Below, in pieces: positions 1,156 through 22,300 of a stretch of DNA of 32,000 nt. Every line of letters begins with the position of its first letter. Position 1 is the stretch's first letter. The translations under genes and the position numbers were made by a program. This stretch comes from Geotalea uraniireducens Rf4 (GTDB lineage: Bacteria > Desulfobacterota > Desulfuromonadia > Geobacterales > Geobacteraceae): NCBI RefSeq assembly GCF_000016745.1, contig NC_009483.1:1350001-1382000 (forward strand), written 5' to 3'. The notes below the pieces were generated by a model. The model did no database searches. It was not told the DNA's origin and saw nothing but the letters and a program-made list of their open reading frames with translations.

Positions 1156-2622
1156 ATGCCGCGGCTAAGTCCAAGAATCATTGCTACCGTTCCTGCAACG
1201 CTCGACACGCCATCTTCAAAAATCGAGATGGTAATTACCGACCTCGGCCTGAACGGCGCTTATCTCAGGGCGCACTCTCCCTTCCCCGGCAAGAAACTGG
1301 GCGTGGATACCCCGGTTTTGCTGCAATATAACCTCTTCGGGAAAGGACTTTTTGAGCATCGTGGAAATATAATAAGGAAGGATAACGCCGGTTATGCCGT
1401 GAATTTTCCCGGGCTCGATTTTGCCACAAAACGCAAGCTTTGGGAGTTTATCGTCGACAATCTGTCCGATGTGCACGAGTGCCCATTTTGCGGCGAGAGT
1501 TACATCACGATGCCGACCACATGCAAAAGATGCGGCTGGGAACTCAATTTCAACCCTCCGGAGTATTTCAACTACTATGAAAAGAACTGCACGATCAAGA
1601 AATTGCATGAAAGACTGTCCGGCCTGGATATAGAGCAGTTACAGAAAATCGTCAATTTTATCGACATCGATATTGCAAAGGTTATGGGGAGTGAGGAAAT
1701 TCAGGAATTTGTCGGCACAGGCAACGCCATGCTGGAAGTGTTCGCCAATATCAGGAAGGTGGCTCCTACCGACCTCACCGTCTTGGTCCTGGGAGAAAGC
1801 GGCACCGGCAAGGAACTGACAGCCCAGGCAATTCACGATCGGAGTACTCGCAAGGACAAACCCTTCGTAGCGATAAACTGTGCTGCAATTCCGGACAATC
1901 TCCTCGAAGCGGAACTTTTCGGCTATGAAAAGGGGGCGTTTACCGGGGCGCACATCAGCAAAAAGGGGAAATTTGAATTTGCGGACAACGGGACCATTTT
2001 CCTGGATGAGATCGGCGATATGCCTCCCAATCTCCAGGCGAAACTGTTGCGGTTTCTCCAGGACAAGATTGTGGAGAGGATCGGCACCGTCGGCGGGAAG
2101 AAGGTCAATGTGCGGCTTATTGCCGCCACCAACCGTGATCTTGATGCCGCGATTGCCGAGGGGAAGTTCCGAAGTGACCTTTATTACAGGTTGGATGAGT
2201 TTACCATTAATCTTCCCCCGGTCCGGGAACGGGGGGAAGATACGGTAATCCTTGCCAAGTACTTCCTGAACAAGTTTTCCAGGGAAGTCGGCTTGACGAA
2301 GACCTTTACCAAAGATGCTGCCGACGCTATCCGCAATTACGACTGGCCGGGGAATGTCAGGGAGATAATCAACAAGGTGAGAAGGGCGATAGTTATGGCC
2401 GGCGGCAAAACCGTCACTCCCGTGGATTTGCTTCTGGACGTGGCAAAGATGGATGTTGGAGCGGAAAATAATCAGCTGAGCGATGCGTTGGCCCAAATTG
2501 AAAGGGCGAAGATCAAAGAAGTTCTCAAAGGCTGCAGCCATAACCTTTCCAATGCTGCCAGGATGCTGGGGATAAGCCGTCCCACCCTGTACCGTCGCAT
2601 GAAGATTTATGGCATCGATTAG
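1156..2622 (+). CDS. Sigma-54-dependent transcriptional activator (bEBP) with an N-terminal PilZ-like domain and a CxxC...CxxC zinc ribbon; no receiver domain
   Basis: AAA+ sigma-54 interaction domain: Walker A GESGTGKE, the GAFTGA loop (EKGAFTGA), IFLDEIGDM, RLIAATNRDL. C-terminal Fis-type HTH: NAARMLGISRPTLYRRMKIYGI. The N-terminus has RLSPR (RxxxR) followed 22 aa later by DLGLNG (DxSxxG with S to G), a PilZ signature. Zinc ribbon: CPFCGESYITMPTTCKRCG. Confidence 0.9.
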   Translation: MPRLSPRIIATVPATLDTPSSKIEMVITDLGLNGAYLRAHSPFPGKKLGVDTPVLLQYNLFGKGLFEHRGNIIRKDNAGYAVNFPGLDFATKRKLWEFIVDNLSDVHECPFCGESYITMPTTCKRCGWELNFNPPEYFNYYEKNCTIKKLHERLSGLDIEQLQKIVNFIDIDIAKVMGSEEIQEFVGTGNAMLEVFANIRKVAPTDLTVLVLGESGTGKELTAQAIHDRSTRKDKPFVAINCAAIPDNLLEAELFGYEKGAFTGAHISKKGKFEFADNGTIFLDEIGDMPPNLQAKLLRFLQDKIVERIGTVGGKKVNVRLIAATNRDLDAAIAEGKFRSDLYYRLDEFTINLPPVRERGEDTVILAKYFLNKFSREVGLTKTFTKDAADAIRNYDWPGNVREIINKVRRAIVMAGGKTVTPVDLLLDVAKMDVGAENNQLSDALAQIERAKIKEVLKGCSHNLSNAARMLGISRPTLYRRMKIYGID

Positions 2623-2852: not shown

Positions 2853-2867
2853 TGGCACAGCAATTGC
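2853..2867 (+). promoter_or_regulatory. Sigma-54 (RpoN) -24/-12 promoter
   Basis: TGGCAC (2853-2858), agcaa, TTGC (2864-2867) is an exact match to the TGGCAC-N5-TTGC core. It lies about 60 nt upstream of the ATG at 2927 and about 230 nt downstream of a sigma-54 activator gene. Confidence 0.8.
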
Positions 2868-2926: not shown

Positions 2927-3958
2927 ATGAAAACGAGAGAAAAGAGAATAATTGTTTCATTGGCCCTTGCCCTTGCTTTAGGACTCGGAACTCAAGCCTT
3001 CGCGCTGGATGAGGTCGAGGTAACTGGTAACGATCTTGTCGGCGCAGTGGACGGGGGGACCTCCGCCAATGACGATGCCACCGCCGTCGGGCAGAATTCA
3101 CTGAACGATAATACTGTCATCGGAGAAATTGAGGTAGACAAGTCGACCGAGACTGCCACCCAGAACGGCAGCGAGAACGAGGCGGAAGATGGGAGCGCGG
3201 CGGCCAACAACAGCTCTATTGCTGTCGGCGAGATTGAATTGGACAAGTCGACCAATGACAGCAACAACAACAACTCCAACCAGGACAACAGCTTAGGTAA
3301 AACGCAGGTTGCAGTGGAAGTGGAAGACAGTTTCAACGACAGTTCCGACAACTCCAACCAGGACAATATCACAGATTCATTTAACGACAAGGCCGAAGCT
3401 GAAGGTGACGGCATATCGCTGGTCGATTCCGAAGAAGTGATCGTTACCAAAGATTCCTTCAACGGCAATATAGGTGAGGTTGAGGGCGGAAGCGTTGCAG
3501 CGACGAATGGTGGGACCGCTACCATGACCGACAGCTACAACGAAGACGAGAGCATCAATGCAACAGCCGACAGAGGTGGCATTGCGGTCAATTCTGACGA
3601 GGAAGTCGAAATAGAAGTCGCCGAAGATTCTTTCAACAACAAAGCGGAAGAGGGGAGCGTAGCGATTTACGGCGATAATGAAGACGATATCGAAATCGCA
3701 TCCCACAACACCATCAACAGCGACAATGAAACCACTACAGTCACGGTGGGTAATGTAGTCATCGAAGTTGCTTCAAGCGTTCTGGCTGGTGAGGTTACCG
3801 CCAACACGTTAGTCGCTACTCCTACTCTCGACTTAATTACCGGCGAAAACGAAATAGACGGCGCCTCTGTGAACACGGCCGGTATCTCGGTGATATCGCA
3901 GAACAGCGGTATTCAGTCCCAGGTGCAGCAGGCTGTAACGGTTCAGTATAACCAATAG
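2927..3958 (+). CDS. Secreted, highly acidic low-complexity repeat protein (343 aa) with a C-terminal QNSG-motif domain; family unknown
   Basis: RBS AAGGAGG about 7 nt upstream. Sec signal peptide MKTREKRIIVSLALALALGLGTQAFA. The body is D/E/N/S-rich with GEIE(V/L)DKST x2 and DSFN/DSYN x5, and has no Cys or Trp. C-terminus: ...ITGENEIDGASVNTAGISVISQNSGIQSQVQQAVTVQYNQ. Confidence 0.8.
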   Translation: MKTREKRIIVSLALALALGLGTQAFALDEVEVTGNDLVGAVDGGTSANDDATAVGQNSLNDNTVIGEIEVDKSTETATQNGSENEAEDGSAAANNSSIAVGEIELDKSTNDSNNNNSNQDNSLGKTQVAVEVEDSFNDSSDNSNQDNITDSFNDKAEAEGDGISLVDSEEVIVTKDSFNGNIGEVEGGSVAATNGGTATMTDSYNEDESINATADRGGIAVNSDEEVEIEVAEDSFNNKAEEGSVAIYGDNEDDIEIASHNTINSDNETTTVTVGNVVIEVASSVLAGEVTANTLVATPTLDLITGENEIDGASVNTAGISVISQNSGIQSQVQQAVTVQYNQ

Positions 3959-3975
3959 TCAGCTGTCAGTATTTG

Positions 3976-4015
3976 CCCGGTGGCGCGCAATAAGGCCGTC
4001 ACCGGGAGCATTTTT
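3976..4015 (+). terminator. Possible intercistronic attenuator/partial terminator after the first secreted-protein gene
   Basis: CCCGGTG (3976-3982) pairs with CACCGGG (4000-4006), followed by agcaTTTTT (4011-4015). Modest stem with a large loop. Confidence 0.3.
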
Positions 4016-4066
4016 AACCGAAGCCTGAAAATCCTGGAGCAACACATAATAACAGGAGGCAGGGAA

Positions 4067-4471
4067 ATGCGAAGATCAACTAAATCTCTGATTGCCGCAC
4101 TGGTTTTTTCCGGCAGCGCTTTTCTGGCGCAGGGTTCTTCGGCAAATGAGATCGATCTGGCTTCGGCCGGGCAGATGGATGCATTAAACGAGTCCGGATT
4201 GGGGCAAGCGGTATCTAACGAGAACCTGGGAACGCTAACCGGTCGCGAGGATGTGAATATCAACCAATTGGACATGCAGATAAGCACCTCGGACCAGAAA
4301 GCCCAAGCGAACGGTAACAGCCTTAGTAACTATGGCACAATCGCCAACGGCGCCAACACCCTCGGCGGGAATGCCTTTTCTCAATCCACCGGGATAGTTA
4401 CCGTGATTCAGAACTCGGGCAATCAGGTCCTCATTCAGAACGATATGATCCTGAATTTAACGGTAAAATAA
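4067..4471 (+). CDS. Small secreted protein (134 aa) with a C-terminal QNSG-motif domain; family unknown
   Basis: AGGAGG at 4054-4059, 7 nt before the ATG at 4067; the ORF-track start at 3980 lacks these signals. Signal peptide MRRSTKSLIAALVFSGSAFLAQGSSA. C-terminus: GANTLGGNAFSQSTGIVTVIQNSGNQVLIQNDMILNLTVK. Confidence 0.75.
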   Translation: MRRSTKSLIAALVFSGSAFLAQGSSANEIDLASAGQMDALNESGLGQAVSNENLGTLTGREDVNINQLDMQISTSDQKAQANGNSLSNYGTIANGANTLGGNAFSQSTGIVTVIQNSGNQVLIQNDMILNLTVK

Positions 4472-4472
4472 G

Positions 4473-5183
4473 ATGGATGCCATGAAATGGTTTCTGATAA
4501 AACTTAGTAAACTTCTTGTTTTTTCAGCTTTTCTGTCAGCGACGTCGCCGGCTCAGGCGGGTACCGTAATTGTGCCCGGTGTGTCCGGCGGCGGTTTTAT
4601 GGTTAAGGTGACGAGCTTGAAGGAAGCGCGCTTCCGTTCCACGATTCTCCAGCAATACGATTTCAGTTGCGGCTCCGCGGCGCTGGCCACCCTGTTGACC
4701 TACCACTATGAGGACAAAGTCAGTGAACAGGATGTATTCAAGTTCATGTTCGACACGGGAGACCAGGAGAAGATTCGCAAAAACGGCTTTTCGCTGCTTG
4801 ATATGAAGAATTACCTTGAGGCCAACGGCTACAGGGCTGCCGGCTACCAAATTACCCTTGACAAGCTGGCGGAGATTGGCGTGCCTGCCATTGTTCTGAT
4901 CAACATCAAGGGCTATAAGCATTTTGTGGTGGTCAAGGGGATTTCGGCGAAAATGGTGTTGTTGTCAGACCCGGCTGCGGGTGCCAGAACCATTCCGCGT
5001 GCCGAGTTCGAGTCTATGTGGAATGGGCTCATATTTATAATATTAAACAAAAAGAACGTAGCAAAAAACCACTTCAACCGCGACCAGGAATGGCACGTCA
5101 AAGAAAAGGCTCCTTTGGGATTGGCTTTAAATGCCAGAGAGCTGGCCAATGTGACCTTGATGCTGCCGGGGGTATTACGATGA
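4473..5183 (+). CDS. Periplasmic C39-family (bacteriocin-processing type) cysteine peptidase-like protein, standalone with its own signal peptide
   Basis: The start ATG is 1 nt after the upstream stop. Signal peptide ...LVFSAFLSATSPAQA. C39 signature order Q...C...H...D: LQQYDFSCGSAALATLLTYHY (Cys), GYKHFVVVKG (His), VLLSDPAAG (Asp). There is no ABC transporter domain. Confidence 0.85.
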   Translation: MDAMKWFLIKLSKLLVFSAFLSATSPAQAGTVIVPGVSGGGFMVKVTSLKEARFRSTILQQYDFSCGSAALATLLTYHYEDKVSEQDVFKFMFDTGDQEKIRKNGFSLLDMKNYLEANGYRAAGYQITLDKLAEIGVPAIVLINIKGYKHFVVVKGISAKMVLLSDPAAGARTIPRAEFESMWNGLIFIILNKKNVAKNHFNRDQEWHVKEKAPLGLALNARELANVTLMLPGVLR

Positions 5184-5695
5184 AAACAGCAATGAATAAA
5201 CATGTGTTGAGAGCCGTCCTGTTAATGGCAACAGTTATGGCGGCAAGTCATTCGGCTTATGCGGATTCAGTTGCATGCGGCGATTGCAGTTTCGTCACGG
5301 ACCTGGAGCTGGAAAATATTCGCGGGGGATTTGTTTCCGGCGACGGGCTGGAGATTACCTTCGGCATCGAAAAGACAGTTTTTGTCAACGGCGTGCTGCA
5401 GGCAATCAACACCTTGAATATGCAGAAGTGGGGCTCAGAGCAGAGTCAGACTTTGTCTGACCAGGTTCTTTCCAATATGGCGATCTTGCGTCAGAACGGC
5501 GACAACAACAGTATTGTGCCGAATTTAGTCGCCAACTCGCAAGGAGGGTTTTTTACGTATATCCAGAACAGCGTGGATAACACGGTCATTAAAAACGTAA
5601 CCCAGATCAATGCCACCGTAAATGCCCTCAATATGTTCCGCGATATGAACCTGAAGTCAATGATGAATCAACAGTTGCTCAATGCGATGAAGTAA
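5180..5695 (+). CDS. Small secreted protein (171 aa) with a double-glycine-leader-like propeptide and a degenerate QNS motif; family unknown
   Basis: The ATG at 5180 overlaps the peptidase stop (ATGA). Signal peptide MKTAMNKHVLRAVLLMATVMAASHSAYA, then DSVACGDCSFVTDLELENIRGG/FVSGDG. Later motif: GGFFTYIQNSVDNTVIKNVTQINATV. The ORF-track start at 5018 lies inside the peptidase gene and was rejected. Confidence 0.75.
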   Translation: MKTAMNKHVLRAVLLMATVMAASHSAYADSVACGDCSFVTDLELENIRGGFVSGDGLEITFGIEKTVFVNGVLQAINTLNMQKWGSEQSQTLSDQVLSNMAILRQNGDNNSIVPNLVANSQGGFFTYIQNSVDNTVIKNVTQINATVNALNMFRDMNLKSMMNQQLLNAMK

Positions 5696-5716
5696 TCGTA
5701 ACGACAGTAGGCGGGT

Positions 5717-5762
5717 AAAAAAATCCGTCAGTTCCCAAAACAGGGATCTGACGGATTTTTTT
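5717..5762. terminator. Bidirectional Rho-independent terminator between convergent genes
   Basis: AAAAAAA-ATCCGTCAGtTCCC, loop aaaaca, GGGAtCTGACGGAT-TTTTTTT: a 13-bp stem with one mismatch, an A-run on one side and a T-run on the other. Confidence 0.8.
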
Positions 5763-5785
5763 GTGAAGTTCGACAGGCTCATGAT

Positions 5786-6997
5786 CTATTTGCCGCCCAG
5801 CAGGAAACTGGTCGGTATCCGCACCGTCAATTGCACATTGGGGGAGGTTGGCGTAAGCCCCGCCCCGAGAGAAAAGTTGATGGCTGTTTTGTCGGTCAGC
5901 TTGTAAGAACAGCCAAGCAGGAGGCTACCTACCTGGGTGATGGTCGAACCGGCTATTTCATGTCCGTTCTGTTTCGCTTTGCCGAGGATGATATGGTCGT
6001 AGCCGATGCTGAAAGAGGCTTTTTCGTTGAGCGCTACGCCGATACCGAAGTTGAAGCCGATGGTGTCGCCCGGGTCCAGTTTACCCTGACCGGAGATTTC
6101 GCGATCCATATTCCACATATAGCTAAGCGTGCCGAAAAAGACTGCCGGATCTGAGGCCCAAATTGCGGTTATGCCGGGCTGGATGGCCCAGAAGCCCGAT
6201 CCGGTGGGGAGTTCGGTCTGCAACGGCACCCCTGACGGACTTGTGACAGTAGAGTCGGTAGAGACTTCAAACGGGTTTTTGCCGGTAATGGACTTGGCGC
6301 GCAGGCTGGCAATGAAAAAAGGCCCATTGCCGCCTGGTTGATTAAGCTGGAATCGAGGGCCGAATTCCACATCGCCGATGTTGTTCCCCTCGGCGTTGAA
6401 AACGGTTGGTGGGATCGTTTTGCCACTCGGATCTTTTGTCGGTTCAAACGATGTGGAATCTGCACGGTATACGTACGGGACCCTGACCTCGAATTCCAGA
6501 CGGTTGGTGATGCCGTAGCGTGCTGCGAGAGAGGCTACATAGGTGTTGCTGTTGACATTCCTGACATCGATGAGTCCGATGGTAAACGAAGGAATGATGG
6601 TGTAGCCGCTCAAGGCCACCCGGTTGGATGACGAGTTCACAAACTGGAAAGACGGTTCCAGTACAAGCGTTCCCTTTGGCGTCAATACTCCCGGCTGTTC
6701 GAAGATCGTGGCGATGTCAGGTGGCTTGCCTTCCTTGGGTTTCTCCGGCGGCTGGCCGACCGATTGGGGAGGGGGCGGTTCTTTCTTTGGATCGGATTTC
6801 TGTTGTGTCGGCGAGCTTTCATTCGGATCGGTCTTGTTCTGGTCAGACTTGTTCTGGCTCAGAGTATGAGTTTCTTCGGCACTGTGAGTTTTGTTCGTGC
6901 CGGGAGCAGAAGTTTCTTCACCGAAGGCCGGCGCGCTTGCCAACAACGCACATGCCAGGCAGACGCAGGCGACAATCTTCGATCGATGTGAAGTCAT
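5786..6997 (-). CDS. Outer-membrane beta-barrel protein (403 aa) with a long Pro/Lys/Gln/Ser-rich N-terminal linker; family not assigned (loosely reminiscent of MetA-pathway/transporter-type barrels)
   Basis: An internal ATG (6997-6995) is preceded by a GGGGGG RBS and gives the signal peptide MTSHRSKIVACVCLACALLASAPAFG. About 90 aa of low-complexity linker follow (…KSDPKKEPPPPQSVGQPPEKPKEGKPPD), then about 300 aa of alternating hydrophobic beta-strand pattern. The C-terminal residue is not aromatic. Confidence 0.7.
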   Translation of the reverse strand: MTSHRSKIVACVCLACALLASAPAFGEETSAPGTNKTHSAEETHTLSQNKSDQNKTDPNESSPTQQKSDPKKEPPPPQSVGQPPEKPKEGKPPDIATIFEQPGVLTPKGTLVLEPSFQFVNSSSNRVALSGYTIIPSFTIGLIDVRNVNSNTYVASLAARYGITNRLEFEVRVPYVYRADSTSFEPTKDPSGKTIPPTVFNAEGNNIGDVEFGPRFQLNQPGGNGPFFIASLRAKSITGKNPFEVSTDSTVTSPSGVPLQTELPTGSGFWAIQPGITAIWASDPAVFFGTLSYMWNMDREISGQGKLDPGDTIGFNFGIGVALNEKASFSIGYDHIILGKAKQNGHEIAGSTITQVGSLLLGCSYKLTDKTAINFSLGAGLTPTSPNVQLTVRIPTSFLLGGK

Positions 6998-7116: not shown

Positions 7117-7199
7117 ATACGTCTAATAAGTGGTAGCCCAATAGTTATTCTTTGATCCGGTTTTGTCTCTCAAATTTGTTATTCGATGGGGGGAATGAA

Positions 7200-7541
7200 A
7201 TGGATATGAATCGATTCCGTGAAAAAAAGCTGTTTTGGTTAATCGTATGCTATGGGCTAATTTCCCTGATTTTTAGCGTCAATTGCTTCGCCGACGAGGC
7301 TGACGTCGGCTTTAACAGTTACCCCGAGCTCCCGGATTTGTCCTCTGACAGAGCAGTGCCGGACCTTTTCACCGGTACGATGAACTATGCGATCCCGATT
7401 AAGGCGCCGCCGGGCCGTAATGGGATGAGCCCTAACATAGCTCTAACCTACCGGAGCAGTAACGGCAACGGCCCGATCGGCATGGGGTGGGAAATTGAGA
7501 TGGGTGCAATTCAGCGCTCCACGCGCGGCGGTGTCGACTAA
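7200..7541 (+). CDS. Signal peptide plus the N-terminal part of an SpvB/TcaC-type (Tc toxin B-subunit N-terminal) domain; out of frame with the downstream RHS body
   Basis: GGGGGGA RBS, then ATG at 7200. Signal peptide MDMNRFREKKLFWLIVCYGLISLIFSVNCFA. SpvB-N signature: TGTMNYAIPIKAPPGRNGMSPNIALTYRSSNGNGPIGMGWEIEMGAIQRSTRGG. Stops at the TAA 7539-7541 in frame 3, while the RHS body is in frame 1 (open from 7447). Confidence 0.7.
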   Translation: MDMNRFREKKLFWLIVCYGLISLIFSVNCFADEADVGFNSYPELPDLSSDRAVPDLFTGTMNYAIPIKAPPGRNGMSPNIALTYRSSNGNGPIGMGWEIEMGAIQRSTRGGVD

Positions 7542-10500
7542 ACAGTCGTCTATTTCAAGCGGATGGCCGGATCAGACTTGGACCGGTCCGACCATATCTT
7601 CCACAGTATATGGTAACCCTGTAGCCAATCAATGTTTAGCCGGCGATTTCGAGGGTGACGGAAGGACCGACATAGTCTGCTATCCCGGCAACGGTGGGAC
7701 TTGGAATATGGCTCTATCCGGATTAGCAACAGAAACTGGGTGGTCTTCCATTATGTCCTGGTCCGGACCGACGCTTAATACAGGCTCTCCTACTGTCAGT
7801 GCCGGCTATGACTGTCTGACCGGCGATTTCGATGGTGACGGAAAAACCGATCTGACCTGCTGGGGCGGAAGCAGTACTTGGTATATGGCGTTATCTTCAA
7901 CAAGAACCGGCGCCGGATGGCAGACCCAGAACTGGGCTGGCCCAACGTTAACATTTTCGAACGTAGCTATTCTTGTGCCCGACAAATGTATAACCGGCGA
8001 TTTCAATGGCGACGGAAAGACAGCCCTGGCCTGCTTCGACAGCGGTGCATGGACATTGGCCTTATCCACTGGAAGAAGCTGGGAAGTTCCGAGCTGGAAT
8101 GGGGGCCCGGCAATTAGTCCAAATCTATCCATCAGAGATCAATGTATTTGGGGCGATTTCAACGGTGATGGGGTAACCGACGCGGCCTGCTATACCGGGG
8201 CATCGCCTTATAACTGGAATATGACACTGTCAATCTCAAACGCATGGATGCATCAGGATTTGGAAGGTCCAATACTGCAGAACTCCCATGTCGGCTATCA
8301 GTGTCTGACCGGCGACTTCAACGGCGACGGGAAAACCGACTTTGCCTGCCTCGATAACTATGGTTCCGGCAGCGGTGGAACCTGGAATGTGGCATTATCA
8401 TATGGAACCGGCTGGTATCAAAAGTATTTGCAGTGGGAGGGTCCGGCACCAAAACCAGATGTCCCCGTCGGCAGGCAGTGCACGGTCGGCGATTTCGACG
8501 GTAACGGGAAAACAGACGTGGCGTGCTATTCAGGCATCGGCGGAGCTTGGAATGTGGCTCTGTCATACGACGATCATTACTGGACAACCGACTTACTCAC
8601 CTCGATTTACAACGGTCTCGGCTCAAAAACCGACATCGAATACTGGCCTTCAACAGCTAGTGATCCGAATATTCAGCTTCCATGGCTGGACCATCATAAT
8701 CCCCGCCTTCCCTTTCCTGTCCATACAGTCCACTCCGTAACGACGTGCGACAACTACACAAGTTCAAGCTGTGTCGGCAATTCATCCGTGACAAACTACA
8801 GTTTTGCCGGCGGGTTCTATCAAATCTACGAACACGACTTTCGAGGGTTCAATTATGCGAAGGTCACCGGCCCTGCGGGGCCGGACGGTGAACAGAAAAT
8901 AGTCGAGACATGGTTCCACCAGGGAGACGACTTGGCTGTTGATGCGAATGATCCTGGCGCGCTATATGATGACACGAAGGGGAAACCGTACCGTACCCGC
9001 GTCTCAGGAATTGCGAATGGACAGGCGCTCGCAACGTACTCTGAGGTGGAGACAACCTATACTACCGTGGCTGATGCCTATCATGTAGCCCCAGGCCAGA
9101 TAGACATATACTGCTGCGCAGATGGCGTCTCAGGTGCATGTAAGGGCAGCACCAATGCCCGACATACGCAGACTTCTTACACCTATGATCAATACGGCAA
9201 CGTGAAGCGTGAAAACCAATACGGCGACGTAAGCGACCCAACCGATGACCGCACTGTTCTCAGAGGTTACGTCCAAAATCAAGACGCCTGGATCGTGGGC
9301 CTTCTCTCCAGTGAAACCGTTTATCAAGGCATTGGTCTGCAAACTCCGGTTTCCTCCACAAATTATGACTATGACGGGGCTACCGATTGCTCGACTTATT
9401 CGCCGACCACGTCACCGGTGAAGGGCAACCTCACCCGTGCCGTCCGTTGGTATAATGGGGGGACGAACACGGAGACCTGGACAAGATATGACGGTTACGG
9501 CAACCCAGTTTGCAGCAAGGATGCAAATGACAATATCACCAGAGTAAGCTACGACAACACTTTTACTTTCCCCAAAATAAGCACCAATCCCTTGGAACAG
9601 CCGACAACCACCCAGTATTACGGCGTGGATGGTGTACCTGCGGATTATGGACTCTATGGCCAGATAAAGAGCATCACTGACCCTAACAACGCTGTGACTT
9701 CTTATGAATATGATCGTTTCGGCAGAAGAACCAAAGCAAACAGGCCGAACTTCGAATGGACGGAGTGGAGGTATAATAGTTTCGGTACGGTCGGCTATCA
9801 GCATGTGCGGGTCAATACCTCCGCCGGCTTCTGGTCTGAGGATTATTTTGACGGTCTGGGGCGGACGTTCAAGGAAAGGAAGAGTGGGCCGGATGCGAAG
9901 ACCATTGTTGCCGACACCCGGTATGACAGACGCGGAGCCGTAGCGCAGGCGTCGCTCCCCTATTTCGAAGGAACTGAGACACCCAGGTACAAGTTGTTCA
10001 CCTACGATCCGATGGGCCGCGTAACACAGGCGACCAGCCCTGACCCGAACATTCGGATATTGTCCTGCTTTGATGAAGGGGTTATGGTGACCATCGACCC
10101 CAACAACCACCGCAAGCGGGAGAGCAGGGACGTTTACGGCCGCCTCGTGAAGGTGGAGGAATACACCGGGACCTATGCCGCCTGTTCGACGGAGGCAGGG
10201 ACCCCGTATGCAACTACCAGCTACAGTTACGACGTGCTGGGGAACCTCCGTTTCGTGACCGACACCAAGGGGAACCAGACCGAGATGCGCTACGACACCC
10301 TCGGTCGTAAATACTACATGAAAGACCCTGACATGGGTGCGTGGAGCTATGGCTACGCCGCAAACGGCAACCTGACTGCCCAAACAGATGCCGATAGCCA
10401 GACCATCCGGTTCACCTACGACCCGTTGAACAGGATCACCCTTAAGGACTACCCCAGCGGCACAGACGTCGTCTATACCTATGACGAATCATTTTCCTCA

Positions 10501-12261
10501 AACCCCCTGGGTCGCCTCACCACCATGACCGACGAGTCGGGAAACACTAAATATTTCTACGACTCGTTAGGGAGGATTACAAAAACAGTTAAGACAGTGG
10601 ATGGGAAAAGCTATACGATCGAAGTTGGGTACACAAAGTTCGACAGGATCTGGTACATTAATTACCCGGACACTGAGCAAGTCCTCTACGAATATGACAC
10701 GGGCGGAAACATCTACAAGGTGGGTAACTACGCCACTTTTACCAATTACAACGCCCTCGGTCAGCCGGGCTCCCTCAACTTCGGCAACGGCGTGAGCACC
10801 ATTTATCAGTACTATCCCCTCAACAACCGCCTTTACTCAATCACCACCAACAGCCCGACCCAGGGCCTCATCAACCTTTCCTATGGCTACGACAATCAGG
10901 GAAACATCACCAGCATCACCGATCACCTCAACGCGTCCATCCCGCACAACTTCACTGGCAGAAGCTTCACCCTCTATCCAGGCAAGGCTCACGCCTACGG
11001 CATCACCGGCACAGGTTTCCAGTACGGCCCCAGCGGGAACATGACCAACAACGGTCAGTACAGCATCCTCTACACCTACGACAACATGCCCCGTTCCATA
11101 GGGGGGGCGGTAAGCTACGTCTACGACGGCAACGGAAGCAGGGTGAAGAAGATCACCCCTGCAACCACAAGGACTTACTTGGATAAGTTCTATGAGTGCG
11201 TTGGAGATGTCTGCGGCAAATACATATTTGCCGGTAATACCAGGATTGTGCTGAAGAGTTCCTTGGGGACCTATTACTACCACCAGGACCACCTGGGGAG
11301 CACCGTTGCAGCGACCGACACGGGCGGCAACAAGGCGGAAAACATCGCCTATTATCCCTTCGGTGAAAGCAGGTCGGATACCGGCAGCACTGGGGTGATC
11401 CACAAATACACCTCGCAGGAGCTGGACTATGAGACAGGGCTCTACAACTACAACGCACGGCTGTATTATCCGGAGATCGGGAGGTTTATTACTGCGGATA
11501 CGATTGTGCCTGATTATGCGAATCCGCAGAGTCTGAACAGGTACGCTTATGTTCAAAATAATCCTATGAATTATGTGGATCCAACTGGTCATGAAGATAT
11601 TTATATTCTTAGAGATGTTTTTGAATTGTCGAATATACAAACAGGTCCTTCACTAGCTGATACCTTTATCGAAGATTTGCCAGGGGATGCCAACGGATTA
11701 TATTTGCCATATCCGTATTTAGGTGAAGTCAATACGGGGACACCTTTCCTCAATTCAGCTGTAAATGGGGTTATCTCAGACTTCTCAACAGCCGCTTATT
11801 ATGGAAATATTACTTATAGTATTCTCGGCTTAAATAATGTCAATCTACAAGATCTGAGCAGGGCCAATGACTACCTAACCGCTGGGTCTCTAGCACTCAT
11901 GCTATTTCCTCCTACAGCTCCTTTTGGTGCGGCCGCGCTCACAACAACTGGTTTAGTTGGCGTAAGTTTAGGCGTTACGGAGGGTATTATAACAAGTAGT
12001 GCCAATAAAATATTATCAAGTGCGGCTGAGTTCAGCATAGGGATGGGAGCAGGAAGATTGGCAAGGAGAGTAGCTGGCCTAACTGCTGTTAAATTCAATT
12101 TTAAGGCGAGCAGATACTATTCAGAGGCAACAGGTAGATTCGTAAGAACTAGTACAGGTCTAAACAGCTCCCAATTAAAAGAAGGAGCAGGGGCAATTTC
12201 TTCAATACCGTTCAAGCTGTCTCCCAATAATGACCCTTCTCAAGCAGGAGGTAGGCAATAG
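7495..12261 (+). CDS. Fused TcB/TcC-like RHS (YD-repeat) polymorphic toxin: six FG-GAP/VCBS-type repeats, a TcdB-middle-like region, YD repeats, an RHS core and a variable C-terminal toxin domain
   Basis: Six repeats of about 48 aa ending C-x-x-GDF-[DNE]-G-[DN]-G-x-T-[DA]-x-x-C. TcdB-mid-like segments: LTSIYNGLGSKTDIEYWPST, YEHDFRGFNYAKV, ETWFHQGD. More than 12 YD repeats (YTYDQYGNV, YEYDRFGRR, YSYDVLGNL, YGYDNQGNI ...). RHS core: YYYHQDHLGSTVAATD...YYPFGE...YNARLYYPEIGRFITADT...NRYAYVQNNPMNYVDPTGHE. The true start is uncertain; the 7495 TTG is only the ORF-track start. Confidence 0.9.
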   Translation: MRWVQFSAPRAAVSTKQSSISSGWPDQTWTGPTISSTVYGNPVANQCLAGDFEGDGRTDIVCYPGNGGTWNMALSGLATETGWSSIMSWSGPTLNTGSPTVSAGYDCLTGDFDGDGKTDLTCWGGSSTWYMALSSTRTGAGWQTQNWAGPTLTFSNVAILVPDKCITGDFNGDGKTALACFDSGAWTLALSTGRSWEVPSWNGGPAISPNLSIRDQCIWGDFNGDGVTDAACYTGASPYNWNMTLSISNAWMHQDLEGPILQNSHVGYQCLTGDFNGDGKTDFACLDNYGSGSGGTWNVALSYGTGWYQKYLQWEGPAPKPDVPVGRQCTVGDFDGNGKTDVACYSGIGGAWNVALSYDDHYWTTDLLTSIYNGLGSKTDIEYWPSTASDPNIQLPWLDHHNPRLPFPVHTVHSVTTCDNYTSSSCVGNSSVTNYSFAGGFYQIYEHDFRGFNYAKVTGPAGPDGEQKIVETWFHQGDDLAVDANDPGALYDDTKGKPYRTRVSGIANGQALATYSEVETTYTTVADAYHVAPGQIDIYCCADGVSGACKGSTNARHTQTSYTYDQYGNVKRENQYGDVSDPTDDRTVLRGYVQNQDAWIVGLLSSETVYQGIGLQTPVSSTNYDYDGATDCSTYSPTTSPVKGNLTRAVRWYNGGTNTETWTRYDGYGNPVCSKDANDNITRVSYDNTFTFPKISTNPLEQPTTTQYYGVDGVPADYGLYGQIKSITDPNNAVTSYEYDRFGRRTKANRPNFEWTEWRYNSFGTVGYQHVRVNTSAGFWSEDYFDGLGRTFKERKSGPDAKTIVADTRYDRRGAVAQASLPYFEGTETPRYKLFTYDPMGRVTQATSPDPNIRILSCFDEGVMVTIDPNNHRKRESRDVYGRLVKVEEYTGTYAACSTEAGTPYATTSYSYDVLGNLRFVTDTKGNQTEMRYDTLGRKYYMKDPDMGAWSYGYAANGNLTAQTDADSQTIRFTYDPLNRITLKDYPSGTDVVYTYDESFSSNPLGRLTTMTDESGNTKYFYDSLGRITKTVKTVDGKSYTIEVGYTKFDRIWYINYPDTEQVLYEYDTGGNIYKVGNYATFTNYNALGQPGSLNFGNGVSTIYQYYPLNNRLYSITTNSPTQGLINLSYGYDNQGNITSITDHLNASIPHNFTGRSFTLYPGKAHAYGITGTGFQYGPSGNMTNNGQYSILYTYDNMPRSIGGAVSYVYDGNGSRVKKITPATTRTYLDKFYECVGDVCGKYIFAGNTRIVLKSSLGTYYYHQDHLGSTVAATDTGGNKAENIAYYPFGESRSDTGSTGVIHKYTSQELDYETGLYNYNARLYYPEIGRFITADTIVPDYANPQSLNRYAYVQNNPMNYVDPTGHEDIYILRDVFELSNIQTGPSLADTFIEDLPGDANGLYLPYPYLGEVNTGTPFLNSAVNGVISDFSTAAYYGNITYSILGLNNVNLQDLSRANDYLTAGSLALMLFPPTAPFGAAALTTTGLVGVSLGVTEGIITSSANKILSSAAEFSIGMGAGRLARRVAGLTAVKFNFKASRYYSEATGRFVRTSTGLNSSQLKEGAGAISSIPFKLSPNNDPSQAGGRQ

Positions 12262-12527: not shown

Positions 12528-13202
12528 ATGAAAAAGTATCTAGTTTTCATTGTGATGGCTGCGGTTTTATGCACACTTTCAGATATCGCCATGGCGGACA
12601 GTATCAAAGGTAGATTGGGCGTAACAGGACGGCTCGGGTTCATGGTTCCTTCCGGCAGCGAATTTACAAAAGTATCCCAATACACCATTATCCCTTCATT
12701 TTCTGTAGCTGTGCCCGAGACTGGTAAAGGAAAAGCTGACACGGCCTTTGCCGGAGGTGGCGGCTTTATTTACGGCATCACCGACAACTTTGCTCTTGAG
12801 GCTGATGTTACCCATACCCCCAATATTAACTATGTTTTTTTAGGACAAAAATCAGTAAGAATCACTACTACTAACGTTTCTCTAGGCTTCCAATACCGCT
12901 TCATTCCTGAGAGCAGGCTTGTACCTTACCTGGGGGCCGGAGTGGATTTCATTATCAGCGATGGCAAATACCAAGGCAGGGATGAATTGGATATTGAAAC
13001 CCTTGTCGGCGACCATGTGAATGCCGGCGTTGATTTCTTCGTCACGAAACACATTGCCCTGAATGCCGATATCAGAGGTGTTCTGGCTCCCAAGGCAGAA
13101 GTCAACAACCGAAACTTATCGCTTCCGGAGAATTTGAAAACAGGCGAATACGATCCGATCAGCTTTGTCGCCCTTTTCGGCGTGAGGTTCTTTTTATACT
13201 GA
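12528..13202 (+). CDS. Small outer-membrane beta-barrel protein (OmpW/OmpA-beta-barrel-like, 224 aa)
   Basis: GGAGAG RBS. Signal peptide MKKYLVFIVMAAVLCTLSDIAMA. Alternating beta-strand pattern (GGGGFIYGITDNFALEADV, VSLGFQYRF, YLGAGVDFIISD, NAGVDFFVTKHIALNADIRGV). C-terminal aromatic signature GVRFFLY. Confidence 0.8.
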   Translation: MKKYLVFIVMAAVLCTLSDIAMADSIKGRLGVTGRLGFMVPSGSEFTKVSQYTIIPSFSVAVPETGKGKADTAFAGGGGFIYGITDNFALEADVTHTPNINYVFLGQKSVRITTTNVSLGFQYRFIPESRLVPYLGAGVDFIISDGKYQGRDELDIETLVGDHVNAGVDFFVTKHIALNADIRGVLAPKAEVNNRNLSLPENLKTGEYDPISFVALFGVRFFLY

Positions 13203-13401: not shown

Positions 13402-16400
13402 TTGACACGGGTGGACTATGACGATGGGACATATATTGCTTACACTTATGACGAGATTGGGAATCGGCTAAATACTACTACAAATGCTCCCAGCGATACT
13501 ACCCCGCCGACGGGGACAGTCGCAATAAACGGCGGATCGCCTGTCACCACTTCAACTGCCGTAACACTTTCGCTTAGCTGCAGCGATGCTAACGGCTGCG
13601 CTCAAATGCAATTCAGTAACGATAACGCAACTTGGTCGACGGTGGAAGCTTTTACGTCCACAAAGGCCTGGACATTGATCACAGGAGAAGGCGCAAAGAC
13701 AGTCTATGTAAAATTCAAGGATACTGTCGGGAACTGGTCAACCGCAGTCGGTGATGCCATCGTGTTTGACACAACAGCCCCAACAACCACCGCTTCGCCT
13801 ACAGGGGGGACATACACTACATCTTTATCGGTGACCCTGATGTGCAACGACGGGACAGGAGGCGGTTGCGACAAAATCTACTATACGACCGACGGCACAA
13901 TACCCACGACGTCATCGAGCGTTTATTCAGCCCCAATACCCATGTCAGAGCCTACAACATTGAAATTTCTCGCGATAGACCTCGCCGGCTACAGCGAAGC
14001 GGTGAAGACGCAGACCTACACAATCGACACTATGCGGCCGACCGGTTCAGTATCAATTAACGGAGGTGCAAATTATACCAACGCTTCAACCGTAACATTA
14101 ACCCTTTCCTGCACTGACAATTCAGGTTGTGACTATATGGAAATCTCGAACTATAACACTGTCTGGCAGGGACCATATGCGACAACCAAGGTATGGACTC
14201 TTCTTCCATCAGGAGACGGCGCCAAGACAGTCTACGTCAACTTCAGGGATACGGCGGGCAACTGGATGTCAACTTCCGTCAGTGCCACCATTGTGCTCGA
14301 TACAACGGTCCCGGTGACCACCGTTTCGCCGACAGAGGGGACGTATAACGCCACCAAGTTGGTGACCCTGACATGCGGTGACGGGACGGGAGCAGGGTGC
14401 GACAAAATCTACTATACAACGGACGGTACAACGCCAACCACTGCATCGAGCGTTTATGCAGGAGCAATAACCGTAGCAGCAACCACGACACTGAAGTACT
14501 TCGCCACCGACGCTGCCGGCAACAGCGAAGCAGTGAAAAGTAAAGCATACATCATAGACACGACGCTGCCGGTAACTACTGTTTCACCGGCAGGAGGGGC
14601 GTACAATACCAGCCAGACGATATCCCTGACCTGCAGCGACGGCGCAGGAACAGGTTGTGATAAGATCTATTACACAACCAATGGTACAACCCCAACCACG
14701 TCGTCGAGCGTCTATTCAACCCCAATATCCGTGTCAACGACTACGACATTGAAGTTCTTTGCAACAGACCTTGCCGGTAACACTGAGGTTGTGAAAAACC
14801 AGACTTACACTATCGATATAACACCGCCGACCGGCACCGTAACGATCAATGCTGGAGCAAACTATACCAACACCGCGGCCGCAACGTTGACCCTTTCCTG
14901 CAACGACAGTGTTGGTTGCGACCAGATGCAGTTCAGCAACGACAACGCGAGCTGGTCGTCGCCTGAAACGCATATGACAACCAAGGTGTGGACCTTGGTC
15001 CTAGGAGATGGCACCAAGACCGTCTACGCCAAATTCAAGGACATGGCGGGCAACTGGTCAACCGCCGTCAGCGACACAATCGTATTTGATGCAACTGCAC
15101 CGGTGACCACCGCTTCGCCGGCGGGAGGGGTGTATAACGCCGCCAAGTCGGTAACTATGACATGCGGTGACGGGACGGGAGCAGGGTGCGACAAAATCTA
15201 CTATACAACCGACGGTACGACACCAACCACTGCATCGAGCGTTTATTCAGGAGCAATAACCGTAGCTGCAACCGCGACACTGAAGTACTTCGCGACCGAC
15301 CTTGTCGGAAACAGCGAAACGGTTAAGTCCCAGACTTACACCATCGACACTACGCCTCCGGTGACTGCCGCTTCACCTGGTAGCGGCGCATACAATACCA
15401 GCCAGACAGTGACCCTGGCCTGTAATGACGGTGTTGGTTCAGGTTGCGACAAAATTTACTACACAACTAACGGAGCCACCCCAACCACGTCATCGAGTGT
15501 CTATTCAACCCCGGTAACCGTGTCCGCGACCACGACGTTGAAGTTTTTTGCAACAGACCTCGTCGGCAACAACGAAACAGTGAAGACCCAGACCTATACC
15601 ATCGACACAACGCCGCCGACCGGCACCATCACAGTCAATAGTGGGGCAGCTTATGTCACAGCAGCAAACGTGACGCTGGCCCTTTCCTGCACCGACAGTG
15701 TTGGTTGCAGCCAGATGCAGTTCAGTAACGACAATTCCAACTGGTCGTCGCCTGAGTCATACGCGACGACCAAGGCGTGGACCCTGGCCACCGGAGACGG
15801 AAACAAAACGGTGTACGTCAAGTTCAAGGATACGGCGGGCAACTGGTCAACAGTTTACAGCGATACTATTTTGCTTGACGCAACAGCACCGGTAACAACC
15901 GCTTCACCTGCCGGAGGGTTCTACAATACCAGCAAGACTGTGACCCTGACGAGTAACGACGGTGCCGGGTTGGGCGTTGACAAGATTTACTATACCATCG
16001 ACGGCACCACCCCCACCACATCGTCGAGCGTCTATGCAGACCCGATTAACATTACGGCCACAACCACCTTGAAGTTTTTTGCCACCGACCTGGCCGGCCA
16101 CACAGAGACGGTGAAAACCAAGACCTACACCATTGACGTCATTGCGCCAACCGTAACCATTACTTCTCCTGCACTTGGCACAACCAACGACAATTCTCCC
16201 CTTCTGACCTATACTACAAATGACGGAACGTGGGTGTCTAATGTTGTAGTCAAGGTGGATGGCGTTATCGTAAGCAAGGTTTCCGGTTACAGTCTGGCTC
16301 CATTGGCTGATGGCATCCATACCGTACGGGTAGAAGCAACTGATTTGGCTGGCAATACCGGCTTTGCCGAAGTAGTCTTTACGGTTGCCCTTGCCTTTAC

Positions 16401-19344: not shown

Positions 19345-22300
19345 ATGCACGGTTTGGTTGCTCATAAAAATCTATTTTTTGTGCTGCTTTTCATCACGAT
19401 TCTTTTGAGTGTGAACGAGGTTTATGCGCTTACCATAGACTCCGTAAAACGCACAAGTCCAGCCGAGCCAACCACCAACGCGGCGAGCGTCGACTACACG
19501 GTCATCTTCAGCGAAGCAGTCACTGGCCTTACGGCGAGCAACTTCACCGTGCCGGTGACCGGCATAAGCGGTGCAGGGGTGACCTCGGTCACCGGCTCTG
19601 GGACCACTTGGACGGCTACCGTAGGAACCGGGAGCGGCGACGGTACGCTCGGCTTCACCATGGAGAACTCCACAGGGGTCACGGACACGGTGGGCAACGC
19701 CGTGGCCAACCTTCCATTCGACGGAGAGATTTACACCATCGACAAAACCGTGCCGACGGTGACCATTGGCTCGACGGCAGCGAATCCGACCAGTGTCTCT
19801 CCCCTCCCGGTCACTGTTACCTTCAGCGAGGCGGTGACCGGCTTTACGGCTGAAGATATCGTCGTCGGCAACGGCACGGCTGGAGCCTTTGCTGGTAGCG
19901 GCGCCACCTATACCTTTAACGTAACCCCCACAGCCAACGGTCCGGTGACTGTCGATATCGCCGCCGGGGCCGCCTTGGATGCGGCCGGCAACGGCAACAG
20001 CGCGGCAGTGCAGTTCAGCCGCAATTATGACAATTCTGCGCCGACGGTGACCATCGGCTCGACCGCAGCCGATCCGACCAGGGTCTCTCCCATCCCCGTG
20101 ACGGTCACCTTCAGCGAGGCAGTGACCGGGTTTGCGGCTGAAGATATCGTCGTCGGCAACGGCACTGCCGGAGCCTTTGCTGGTAGCGGCGCCACCTATA
20201 CCTTTAACGTAACCCCCACGGCCAACGGTCCGGTGACCGTCGATATCGCCGCCGGGGCCGCCTTGGATGCGGCCGGCAACGGCAACAGCGCGGCAGTGCA
20301 GTTCAGCCGCAATTATGACAATACGACGCCGACGGTGACCATCGGCTCGATGGCAGCCGATCCGACCAATGTCTCTCCCATCCCCGTGACGGTCACCTTC
20401 AGCGAGGCGGTGACCGGGTTTGCGGCTGAAGATATCGTCGTCGGCAACGGCACTGCCGGAGCCTTTGCTGGTAGCGGCGCTACCTATACCTTTAACGTAA
20501 CCCCCACGGCCACCGGTCCGGTGACCGTCGATATCGCCTCCGGGGCCGCCCAGGATGCTGCCGGCAACGGCAACAGCGCCGCTTCCCAGTTGAGCCGCAA
20601 TTATGACAATACTGTGCCGACGGTGACCATCGGCTCGACGGCAGCCAATCCGACCAACGTCTCTCCCATCACCGTGACTGTCACCTTCAGCGAGGCGGTG
20701 ACCGGGTTTGCGGCAGGAGATATAACCGTCGGCAACGGCACGGTGACGTCCGGCTCCTTCACCGGAAGCGGTGCCACGTACACCTTTAGCGTCATCCCCA
20801 CCGCCAACGGAGCGATGACTGTCGCTATCGCCGCCGGTGTCGCCCAAGATGCGGCCGGCAACGGCAACAGCGCGGCAGTGCAGTTCAGCCGCAATTATGA
20901 CAATACTGTGCCGACGGTGACCATCGGCTCGACGGCAGCCAATCCGACCAGGGTCTCTCCCATCCCCGTGACGGTCACCTTCAGCGAGGCGGTGATCGGG
21001 TTTGCGGCAGGAGATATAACCGTCGGCAACGGCACGGTGACGTCCGGCTCCTTTGCCGGGAGCGGTGCCACGTACACCTTTAGCGTCACCCCCACCGCCA
21101 ACGGAGCGGTGACCGTCGATGTCGCCGTTGGTGTCGCCCAGGATGCGGCCGGCAACGGTAACAGCGCCTCCTCCCGGTTCAGCCGGATTTACGACAATAC
21201 CGCGCCGACCATGGACGCCGCCGCATCATACGTAAACTCGACCCATGTGGATGTGACCTTCAGCGAGGGGGTTATTGGCGCAGATGTTGCCGCAAACTAC
21301 ACCGCACCCGGTCTGACCATAACTGCGGCAGTATCACAGGGGGGCGCCACGTATCGTCTAACCACCAGTCTCCAGGGAATAGGAACCACCTATAACATAA
21401 CCGCCAACAACATCTCCGACCCGGCGGGCAACGCCCTGAGCAGCAGCGACAAGACCGCAACCTTCACCAGGACTTCAGCCTCGAACTCCGCTCCGACCAC
21501 ACCGACCCTCAACGCGCCGCCAAACGGGACTTTCAATGTTAATGAAGTCAACACGCTCACTCCCACCCTTGCAGTCAATAACTCAACCGATGTTGACCTG
21601 GACCCACTGAGCTACACCTTTGTGGTAGACACGGTCAACACCTTTGACAGCCCCAATAAAAAGACATCAACCCTTGTCCCCTCCGGGGCCGGCACAACGA
21701 GTTGGACCATTCCATCATCGTCTCCGCTTGTTGACAACACCACCTGGTACTGGCGCGTCACGGCTACCGACGGCAACAAGGGTTCCTCCCCCTCACAGAC
21801 GGGCAGCTTCTTCGTCAACACCGTCAACGACGCGCCTGCCGGCCTTGCCGTCAGCTCACCCACCAACGACCCCAAAACAGAGGTAACGGACCTGCAGCCT
21901 CTCCTCACCGTCACCAACGCGACGGATCTGGATAACGACACTCTCACCTACGAATTTGAGGTAGCCACGGACGGCAGCTTTACAAACGTCGTGGCAAAGG
22001 CGGTCACTGGTGTTGCGCAGGGCACGGCCGGGACTACTACCTGGAAAGTATCGCCCGCGCTTAACGACAACACCCAGTACCACTGGAGGAGCAGGGCAAA
22101 AGACCAGCACGGGTTGCCCGACAGCAGTTATAGTGGCTGGGTGACCGCCACATTCTTCACCAATACGAGCAACGACGCGCCGTCTGCCCCGACGGTCAAC
22201 GCACCGCTGAACAATAATGAAATATCCACCACGCTCACCCCCACGCTCACGATCAACAATTCCACGGATCCGGACCGGGACCCTCTGACCTATACCTTCG

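Follow-up and report, generated by a model that had tools for sequence, protein, structure and literature searches.

A conserved leader-like double-glycine motif in a FapE-like protein encoded next to a stand-alone C39 peptidase in Geotalea uraniireducens

The C39 peptidase gene and its partners

The 32-kb window of Geotalea uraniireducens DNA considered here, i.e. the whole stretch analysed, in which genes were called from an open reading frame (ORF) listing together with Pfam and NCBIfam scans, contains a gene for a stand-alone, FapD-like C39 cysteine peptidase (4473–5183, plus strand). Directly behind it lies a gene for a FapE-like protein of 171 amino acids (aa; 5180–5695, plus strand), the stop of the former and the start of the latter overlapping as ATGA. 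Behind the predicted signal peptide of the 171-aa protein is a conserved leader-like double-glycine motif, the subject of the present report. Two more genes for predicted secreted proteins lie ahead of the peptidase gene on the plus strand. The first encodes an acidic, N/D/S/T-rich and repetitive protein of 343 aa (2927–3958), a candidate major fibre subunit; the second encodes a 134-aa protein with one FapB-like C-terminal repeat (4067–4471), a candidate minor or nucleator subunit. A FapF-like outer-membrane beta-barrel channel is encoded on the minus strand (5786–6997) and matches both the solved FapF structure (PDB 5O67, E 4e-32) and the NCBIfam FapF model (1e-44). The Sec signals of the peptidase and of the 343-, 134- and 171-aa proteins were called by eye from a K/R-containing n-region, a hydrophobic core and an AxA-type site.

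C39 domains normally cut double-glycine leaders in the cytoplasm during export by ATP-binding cassette (ABC) transporters. A classical ABC-exporter context was not found at this locus: the 236-aa peptidase stands alone with a Sec-type N-terminus, and ABC matches are confined to the peptidase domain. PF03412 is recognised over residues 57–193 with 83.6 bits (cut-off 22), the best NCBIfam match is FapD (4e-49), and the protein is 100% identical to a Geotalea uraniireducens protein. The closest PDB match is the double-glycine protease LahT150 (6MPZ, 2e-10), whose Cys, His and Asp motifs align with those of the peptidase. The catalytic set comprises Gln60, Cys66 (4668–4670), His150 (4920–4922) and Asp166 (4968–4970). 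All four residues are invariant in 85 of the 85 peptidases examined, each of which also shows a Sec-type N-terminus, as judged by eye. The C-terminal 48 residues of the peptidase (5037–5180) form a tail that is conserved across the 85 loci (FN..[DE]W.....APLG.A[LV]....LA..TL.LPG..DF) and has a hydrophobic register loosely like that of a leader, without a GG. That the tail (APLGxALxxxxLAxxTLxLPGxxDF) is a leader mimic, and might thus act as a pseudo-substrate, is speculative: enrichment is weak (at least 3 bits in 11% of tails vs. 0.5% of controls), and scores are negative for the majority of tails.

Measured against the curated equivalog models, the peptidase scores 166.8 bits for FapD (cut-off 330; Pseudomonas control 426.9) and the barrel 153 bits for FapF (cut-off 700). 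The NCBIfam models of FapA, FapB, FapC and FapE found no match in the window, neither the 343-aa nor the 134-aa protein being matched by FapB or FapC, and the NCBIfam scan of the 171-aa protein gave no hit to NF058559 (FapE) at E ≤ 0.1. Among the controls, a Pseudomonas synxantha locus scored above threshold for FapA, FapB, FapC, FapD and FapF, and a full-length Pseudomonas-type FapE from a metagenome contig scored above the FapE threshold. Because the best matches are to FapD and FapF, albeit below the cut-offs, and the barrel matches the solved FapF 5O67, the region is, on sequence grounds, a Fap-like fibre-secretion cluster and a distant relative of the Pseudomonas fap operon, which the curated models do not admit as a member.

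The 343-, 134- and 171-aa proteins, the long FapE-like relatives described below and the orthologous large and small proteins fall into no Pfam or NCBIfam family; the Pfam version used predates the newer FapBC model, and the Pseudomonas FapB and FapC controls were likewise blank in Pfam. A C-terminal motif, G-[IF]-x-x-x-I-Q-N-S-G/x-x-x-V-x-I-Q/K-N, is common to the three predicted secreted proteins and encoded at 3880–3955, 4390–4468 and 5550–5620. It sits at the extreme C-terminus of the 343-aa protein (as GISVISQNSG..VQQ) and of the 134-aa protein. The C-terminus of the latter, GIVTVIQNSGNQVLIQNDMILNLTVK, resembles the Pseudomonas FapB repeat GVIQVNQSAGVGNRVANTLGITIK, a by-eye resemblance that involves one repeat. 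The shared motif, which is N/Q-rich and akin to the FapB/FapC repeats, may represent an amyloid-type repeat unit or a channel-targeting signal.

Leader-like motifs in two proteins flanking the peptidase

The predicted Sec signal peptide of the 171-aa protein, read from the sequence, has 28 residues and ends at MKTAMNKHVLRAVLLMATVMAASHSAYA/DS (5180–5263, plus strand). It is followed by a leader-like propeptide of 22 residues, DSVACGDCSFVTDLELENIRGG (5264–5329, plus strand), with the predicted scissile bond after G50 (nucleotide 5329), and by the predicted mature domain of 121 aa, FVSGDGLEITFGIEK... (5330–5692, plus strand), which corresponds to a conserved C-terminal module. The peptide spanning the predicted C39 site reads DSVACGDCSFVTDLELENIRGGFVSGDG. 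The two glycines, G49 and G50, are encoded by GGG GGA at 5324–5329 and provide the Gly-Gly (or Gly-Ala/Ser) pair that double-glycine leaders have at -2/-1. Counting back from the pair, I47 occupies position -4, L44 position -7, a Glu position -8, V39 position -12 and C36 position -15. The hydrophobic positions of double-glycine leaders (-4, -7, -12 and -15) are thus reproduced, the family-wide residues being V/M/L/I, L, V/L and W/L/A, respectively. The classical placement at the extreme N-terminus, independent of Sec, is not, as the 28-residue signal peptide precedes the motif.

Conservation of the motif was followed at three depths. Among eight close homologues of the 171-aa protein TDxELxxI/MxGG is invariant. 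A profile search over 1.84 billion representatives returned 1406 representative clusters at E ≤ 1e-3 (761 at E ≤ 1e-10), and the top diverse representatives aligned across the motif, 157 out of 157, share L at -7, V/M/I/L at -4, R at -3, the two glycines and a following F/Y, with V/L at -12 and L/W/C at -15; the count is partly circular. Because the profile used to rank these representatives includes the motif itself, an independent set was built by a genome scan seeded with peptidase sequences alone. It comprises 80 species-level loci from Alpha-, Beta-, Gamma- and Deltaproteobacteria, Nitrospira and Acidobacteria, plus one bin labelled Chloroflexota, and in these loci the ORF directly 3' of the peptidase is FapE-like. 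RGG is present in 76 of the 80, the remaining four having RGA, RAG, RGT and RAS. Position -7 is L/M in 78/79, position -4 is M/L/V/I in 58/79, position -12 is V/L/I/A/M, and position +1 is F/Y in 73/79. In control six-frame ORFs from the same loci, 324,736 aa in total, the strict motif L..[LIVM]RGG[FY] turns up a single time; in the window it is confined to the site in the 171-aa protein. The leader motif of the 171-aa protein is far beyond chance. The sequence-only reading, which had singled out this Gly-Gly pair with its residues at -4, -7, -8 and -12, had its coordinates right, and the alignments of close homologues and independent loci bear out the pattern it described.

The motif lies 117–124 aa from the C-terminus in family proteins of 155 to 905 aa, and 33 to 776 aa from the N-terminus. 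As the C-terminal distance is constant and the N-terminal distance variable, the conserved unit consists of the motif plus a C-terminal domain of ~120 aa. Upstream of the motif both length and content vary, the ~120 aa downstream are conserved, and the motif marks the boundary between the two. Signal peptide and motif are ~22 aa apart in the Geotalea type, and other members have a long extension of poor conservation at this place, so that a short propeptide behind the signal peptide describes the window protein and not the family. Many FapE-like relatives have 300–780 extra residues between signal peptide and RGG (e.g. P0149, which has 905 aa, P0152, P0081 and P0039; L013:8705–9997; L034:1471–4062), the extension in L013 (8705–9997) being an obvious Q/E/R-rich coiled coil. 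Pfam and NCBIfam scans of the long extensions gave no match. If the motif is cut in these proteins, a large periplasmic fragment would be released. The CGDC (CxxC) pair pointed out earlier in the propeptide is present as well, although the two Cys are kept in the Geobacteraceae group alone; elsewhere -15 is W, L or A. An AlphaFold2 model of the 171-aa protein (46-sequence alignment; mean predicted local distance difference test, pLDDT, 63; predicted template modelling score, pTM, 0.36) contains a helix at residues 4–22, a short, low-confidence helix at 41–47 just before RGG, and strands from residue 58.

A second leader-like motif was found on the other side of the peptidase gene. In the 134-aa protein, GLGQAVSNENLGTLTGR/ED (4196–4246, plus strand) is a second candidate C39 site, in which V stands at -12, L at both -7 and -4, G at -2 and R at -1 (R60). 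The sequence-only reading had stated that this protein has no equivalent GG, which is literally true; yet the stretch it quoted is the homologous motif ending in G-R (VSNENLGTLTGR/ED), and the same position is GG in 27 of 48 orthologues. These 48 were retained when a motif profile was refined on 63 orthologous small proteins. In the refined profile position -12 is V/L/I, and L at -7 (46/48), R at -3 (39/48) and G at -2 (43/48) predominate, whereas -1 is more variable (G 27, R 8, K 4, Q 3). The unrefined FapE-leader profile already scores at least 6 bits in 28 of the 63 small proteins as compared to 4 of 1572 control ORFs. The stronger conservation of Gly at -2 than at -1 fits C39 specificity. 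Reportedly, the leader positions seen here matter for classical C39 substrates (Havarstein 1995 and ComA peptidase-domain studies), and the ComA work is said to agree with Gly being more conserved at -2 than at -1. Since the sequence after the motif differs between the small proteins and the FapE-like proteins, the motif is conserved in two contexts, both flanking the peptidase gene. The 134-aa protein is probably a second, weaker or differently handled substrate, as judged from its motif.

Predicted cleavage and alternative readings

These data suggest the following route. The 343-, 134- and 171-aa proteins and the C39 peptidase would leave the cytoplasm via Sec, with removal of their signal peptides. 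Once in the periplasm, the peptidase would bind the leader of the 171-aa protein, in which a short amphipathic helix, hydrophobic at -4, -7, -12 and -15, precedes R-G-G. A cut after Gly50 would free the 22-residue propeptide and a mature 121-aa protein starting with Phe51. A similar, perhaps less efficient event may take place after R60 of the 134-aa protein. By analogy with the FapD Cys and FapC secretion in Pseudomonas, processing could license the passage of subunits through the FapF-like outer-membrane channel. The central step, cleavage of the 171-aa protein at RGG by the periplasmic C39 peptidase, is considered likely. It is favoured by the occurrence of the same motif in a second protein family on the other side of the peptidase gene and by its lack in the large proteins. 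The proposal of the sequence-only reading that a neighbouring periplasmic C39 peptidase reads GG leaders located after Sec signals is strongly supported for the 171-aa protein, where motif conservation, strict gene adjacency, the 85/85 catalytic sets and the published work on FapD (PMC5557850) concur, and falls for the 343-aa protein (see below).

Several observations weigh against cleavage at this position. The invariant Arg at -3 and Phe at +1 are non-classical and could place the stretch within the mature fold. Arg occupies -1 in all 80 Pseudomonas-type FapE sequences (see below), and R, K, Q or E does so in many small proteins, which is unusual for the residue preceding a C39 cut. The window's own 134-aa motif scores 0.4 bit with the FapE-leader profile and 6.3 bits with the refined profile, the lowest of the 48. 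The gap in the published FapE mass spectrometry (~70 residues) exceeds the ~40 residues predicted here, and trypsin would cut RGR anyway. The AlphaFold2 model of the 171-aa protein is of low confidence (pLDDT 63), and the profile ranking behind the 157-representative set favours motif-bearing members, a circularity from which the 80-locus set is free.

The first alternative to be weighed is that the motif is a docking element which is bound and not cut, the peptidase or the FapF-like channel escorting the subunits, with the scissile bond elsewhere or in another protein. C39-like domains that bind without cleaving are known from type 1 secretion, as cited by Rouse et al., who also considered FapF as a substrate (PMC5557850). 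The Arg at -1 in Pseudomonas FapE and the variable -1 of the small proteins would be accommodated by docking, too. Conversely, none of the 85 peptidases deviates at the catalytic Gln, Cys, His or Asp, and FapD requires its Cys for function; the N-terminal region of the FapF-like protein in the window has no GG, and the variable-length stretch N-terminal to the motif fits a prodomain that is removed. Docking without cleavage is regarded as unlikely.

Secondly, LxxxRGGF could be the first structural element of the C-terminal domain, e.g. a helix and a Gly-Gly turn ahead of the beta-hairpin, with a role in folding or fibre assembly that is unrelated to the peptidase. Conservation that continues unbroken past the glycines (GGFvtxDGLxISFGIER), the invariance of R at -3 and F at +1, and the modelled succession of helix 41–47, loop and strands from residue 58 agree with such a role. 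However, the small-protein family has the same motif in front of unrelated downstream sequence, the four hydrophobic positions together with GG agree with the C39 leader rule, and the gene always adjoins the peptidase gene, overlapping it in the window. A purely structural role appears quite improbable.

The analogous leader that had been proposed for the 343-aa protein, cut after G44 (VGAVDGG/TSA), is most improbable: its GG (3053–3058, residues 43–44) does lie 18 aa past the signal peptide with V at -4 and -7, but it lacks L at -7, R at -3 and an aromatic residue at +1, is NG in the Geobacteraceae orthologue and NG or RG among close orthologues, and all 53 orthologous large proteins score at most 0.1 bit with both leader profiles. 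The pattern itself (hydrophobic -4 and -7 plus GG) arises at a rate of 0.5 per 1000 aa in controls and has 16 occurrences among the six-frame ORFs of the window, including a second copy in the 343-aa protein. The site was rejected as a chance occurrence, and because the GG is at chance level and not conserved, the 343-aa protein is not a comparable substrate.

Regulation, neighbourhood and relation to known systems

Upstream of the structural genes, a sigma-54-dependent activator with an N-terminal PilZ domain is encoded at 1156–2622 (plus strand; Pfam Sigma54_activat 8e-71, PilZ 1e-5, HTH_8) and is the likely regulator of the cluster. A sigma-54 promoter consensus, TGGCACAGCAATTGC, lies at 2853–2867 (plus strand), ~60 nucleotides 5' of the 343-aa gene, and is the one exact match to TGGCAC-N5-TTGC in the whole window. 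As a PilZ-type (cyclic di-GMP-binding type) sigma-54 AAA+ activator is combined with an exact sigma-54 promoter before the first structural gene, the arrangement suggests control of a matrix fibre linked to cyclic di-GMP. In orthologous clusters, Pseudomonas fap included, a VpsR-type sigma-54 activator replaces the PilZ type.

Beyond the channel gene, a large protein with RHS-repeat, TcdB-midN and FG-GAP matches is encoded at 7495–12261, and a 129-aa ORF with a signal peptide (7152–7541) precedes and overlaps it in another frame. The stretch 7152–12261 resembles a single toxin-type gene whose frame changes near 7495–7541. An OmpW-type small barrel (12528–13202) is followed by two giant surface-protein genes, 13402–18813 (1803 aa) and 19345–25053 (1902 aa), whose products are composed of Big_12 Ig-like and CHB_HEX_C/Fn3-associated domains. 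Taken with the Fap-like cluster, the OmpW barrel and the giant surface genes look like a cell-surface or biofilm gene neighbourhood.

The closest likeness is to the Fap system of Pseudomonas, which also has a stand-alone, Sec-exported C39 peptidase, a fapE-type gene directly after it, a FapF-type barrel alongside and a sigma-54 activator nearby. The order of peptidase, fapE-type and channel genes is found in the window and kept in nearly all of the 80 loci, with a FapF-like barrel near in most. In Pseudomonas, FapD is periplasmic and FapC secretion depends on its Cys38; mass spectrometry detected no part of FapE ahead of residue 72, and FapE was proposed as the likely substrate (Rouse 2017, PMC5557850). 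The substrate was "yet to be determined" in a 2018 review and unassigned in 2025, too (PMC6173800, PMC12459412).

Using the mass-spectrometry peptides of Rouse et al. as queries, the P. synxantha fap locus and 80 Pseudomonas-type FapE genes on metagenome contigs (L087–L166) were retrieved; a protein search with the UK4 FapE peptides gave six fragments, from one of which the Pseudomonas locus was recovered. Profile–profile comparison (hhalign) aligned the 171-aa family with Pseudomonas FapE over residues 19–64 with 93% probability and E 3e-7. The alignment covers the leader and the ISFGI region (N-terminal 45 residues) and places G50 of the window protein opposite R40 of FapE. All 80 Pseudomonas-type FapE sequences contain E[LIV]KDxE[LM]xxLRGR/[YF]VMPGRIISFGIV after the signal peptide. 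As LRGR is aligned with the RGG of the window family, Pseudomonas FapE appears to have the same element with G-R in place of G-G. The invariant LRGR would explain why no canonical site has been reported in Pseudomonas, and since trypsin cuts after RGR, the published tryptic map could not reveal the FapE site. In the complete genome of P. synxantha (CP027757; L006:5646–6387) fapE is split into two overlapping frames, 5646–6056 and 5989–6387, with a 128-aa fragment annotated. Either the gene has undergone a frameshift or the assembly contains an error; the gene on metagenome contig L087 is intact (247 aa).

The two systems differ in several respects. Pseudomonas FapE has an invariant RGR at the site and ~247 aa, as compared to RGG and 171 aa in the window family. 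A search for the motif in Pseudomonas FapA, FapB and FapC found none, i.e. FapE alone has it there, whereas in the window a second protein (134 aa) has it, too. The window cluster has no FapA, and its channel is encoded on the other strand and has no periplasmic coiled coil: the barrel matches FapF profile positions 103–420 only. In place of the coiled coil on which secretion by Pseudomonas FapF depends, its N-terminal ~95 residues are low-complexity and P/K/E/Q/S-rich.

A wider generalisation would be that FapD-type C39 peptidases of the periplasm universally recognise and cut a leader of the double-glycine type, located behind a Sec signal or behind a prodomain of up to ~750 aa. Each system would have two substrates, the FapE-like protein and a small FapB-like one, and cutting would be the licence for FapF-type export in Alpha-, Beta-, Gamma- and Deltaproteobacteria, Nitrospira and Acidobacteria. 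We hold the chances for and against it to be about even. If it is true, Pseudomonas FapD would, by homology, cut FapE after L-R-G-R (residue 40), a site missed since it is not GG and is masked by trypsin. Which substrate FapD cuts, and where, has been a question since 2017, and the present comparison offers a residue-level prediction for both. Because the larger sister group of Fap (1406 clusters) keeps a textbook double-glycine leader, the prediction is testable at the level of single residues for the window system as well as for Pseudomonas. If correct, it would also provide a possible target to block the export of matrix fibres.

The two-step route as such is not new, because periplasmic C39 processing has already been proposed, albeit not proven, for FapE (Rouse 2017) and for Neisseria Nap (2025). 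In the literature searched, neither a conserved leader motif of FapE-type proteins nor a second family of substrates is described, and the precise conserved site and the second candidate substrate appear to be new. For the Fil system of Acinetobacter, a putative pilus system, the literature search found nothing; the peptidase has a secondary match to FilB (9e-35, 120 bits vs. 475) and the barrel to FilC (2e-9, 37 vs. 630), both far below the cut-offs. The nap island of Neisseria combines a stand-alone C39 peptidase (NapP), a FapF homologue (NapF) and GG-bearing Nap peptides; in the model put forward in 2025, NapP cuts GG-motif peptides in the periplasm before their export via the FapF homologue (PMC11798529). 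Compared by description, the Nap substrates differ in being small, cationic, microcin-like peptides connected to autolysis and not fibre subunits, and no FapE-like gene is described there.

With the double-glycine leaders of class II bacteriocins, ComC and lanthipeptides, which are processed by the C39 domains of ComA, LahT and PCAT1, the window family shares GG at -2/-1, hydrophobic residues at -4, -7, -12 and -15, and a predicted helix. The catalytic residues are the same, too, although the classical PCAT/AMS C39 is a domain of an ABC transporter while the window peptidase is unfused and has a Sec signal. Likewise, the classical leader is the N-terminus itself, whereas the leader in the window follows a signal peptide and those of its relatives follow a prodomain of up to ~750 aa. 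Unlike classical leaders, the window family has invariant R at -3 and F/Y at +1, and its cargo is a 120-aa domain for an outer-membrane channel. If the proposed processing holds, C39 biology would reach beyond leader removal in the cytoplasm, coupled to ABC transport, to a two-step route via Sec and the periplasm that supplies an outer-membrane channel.

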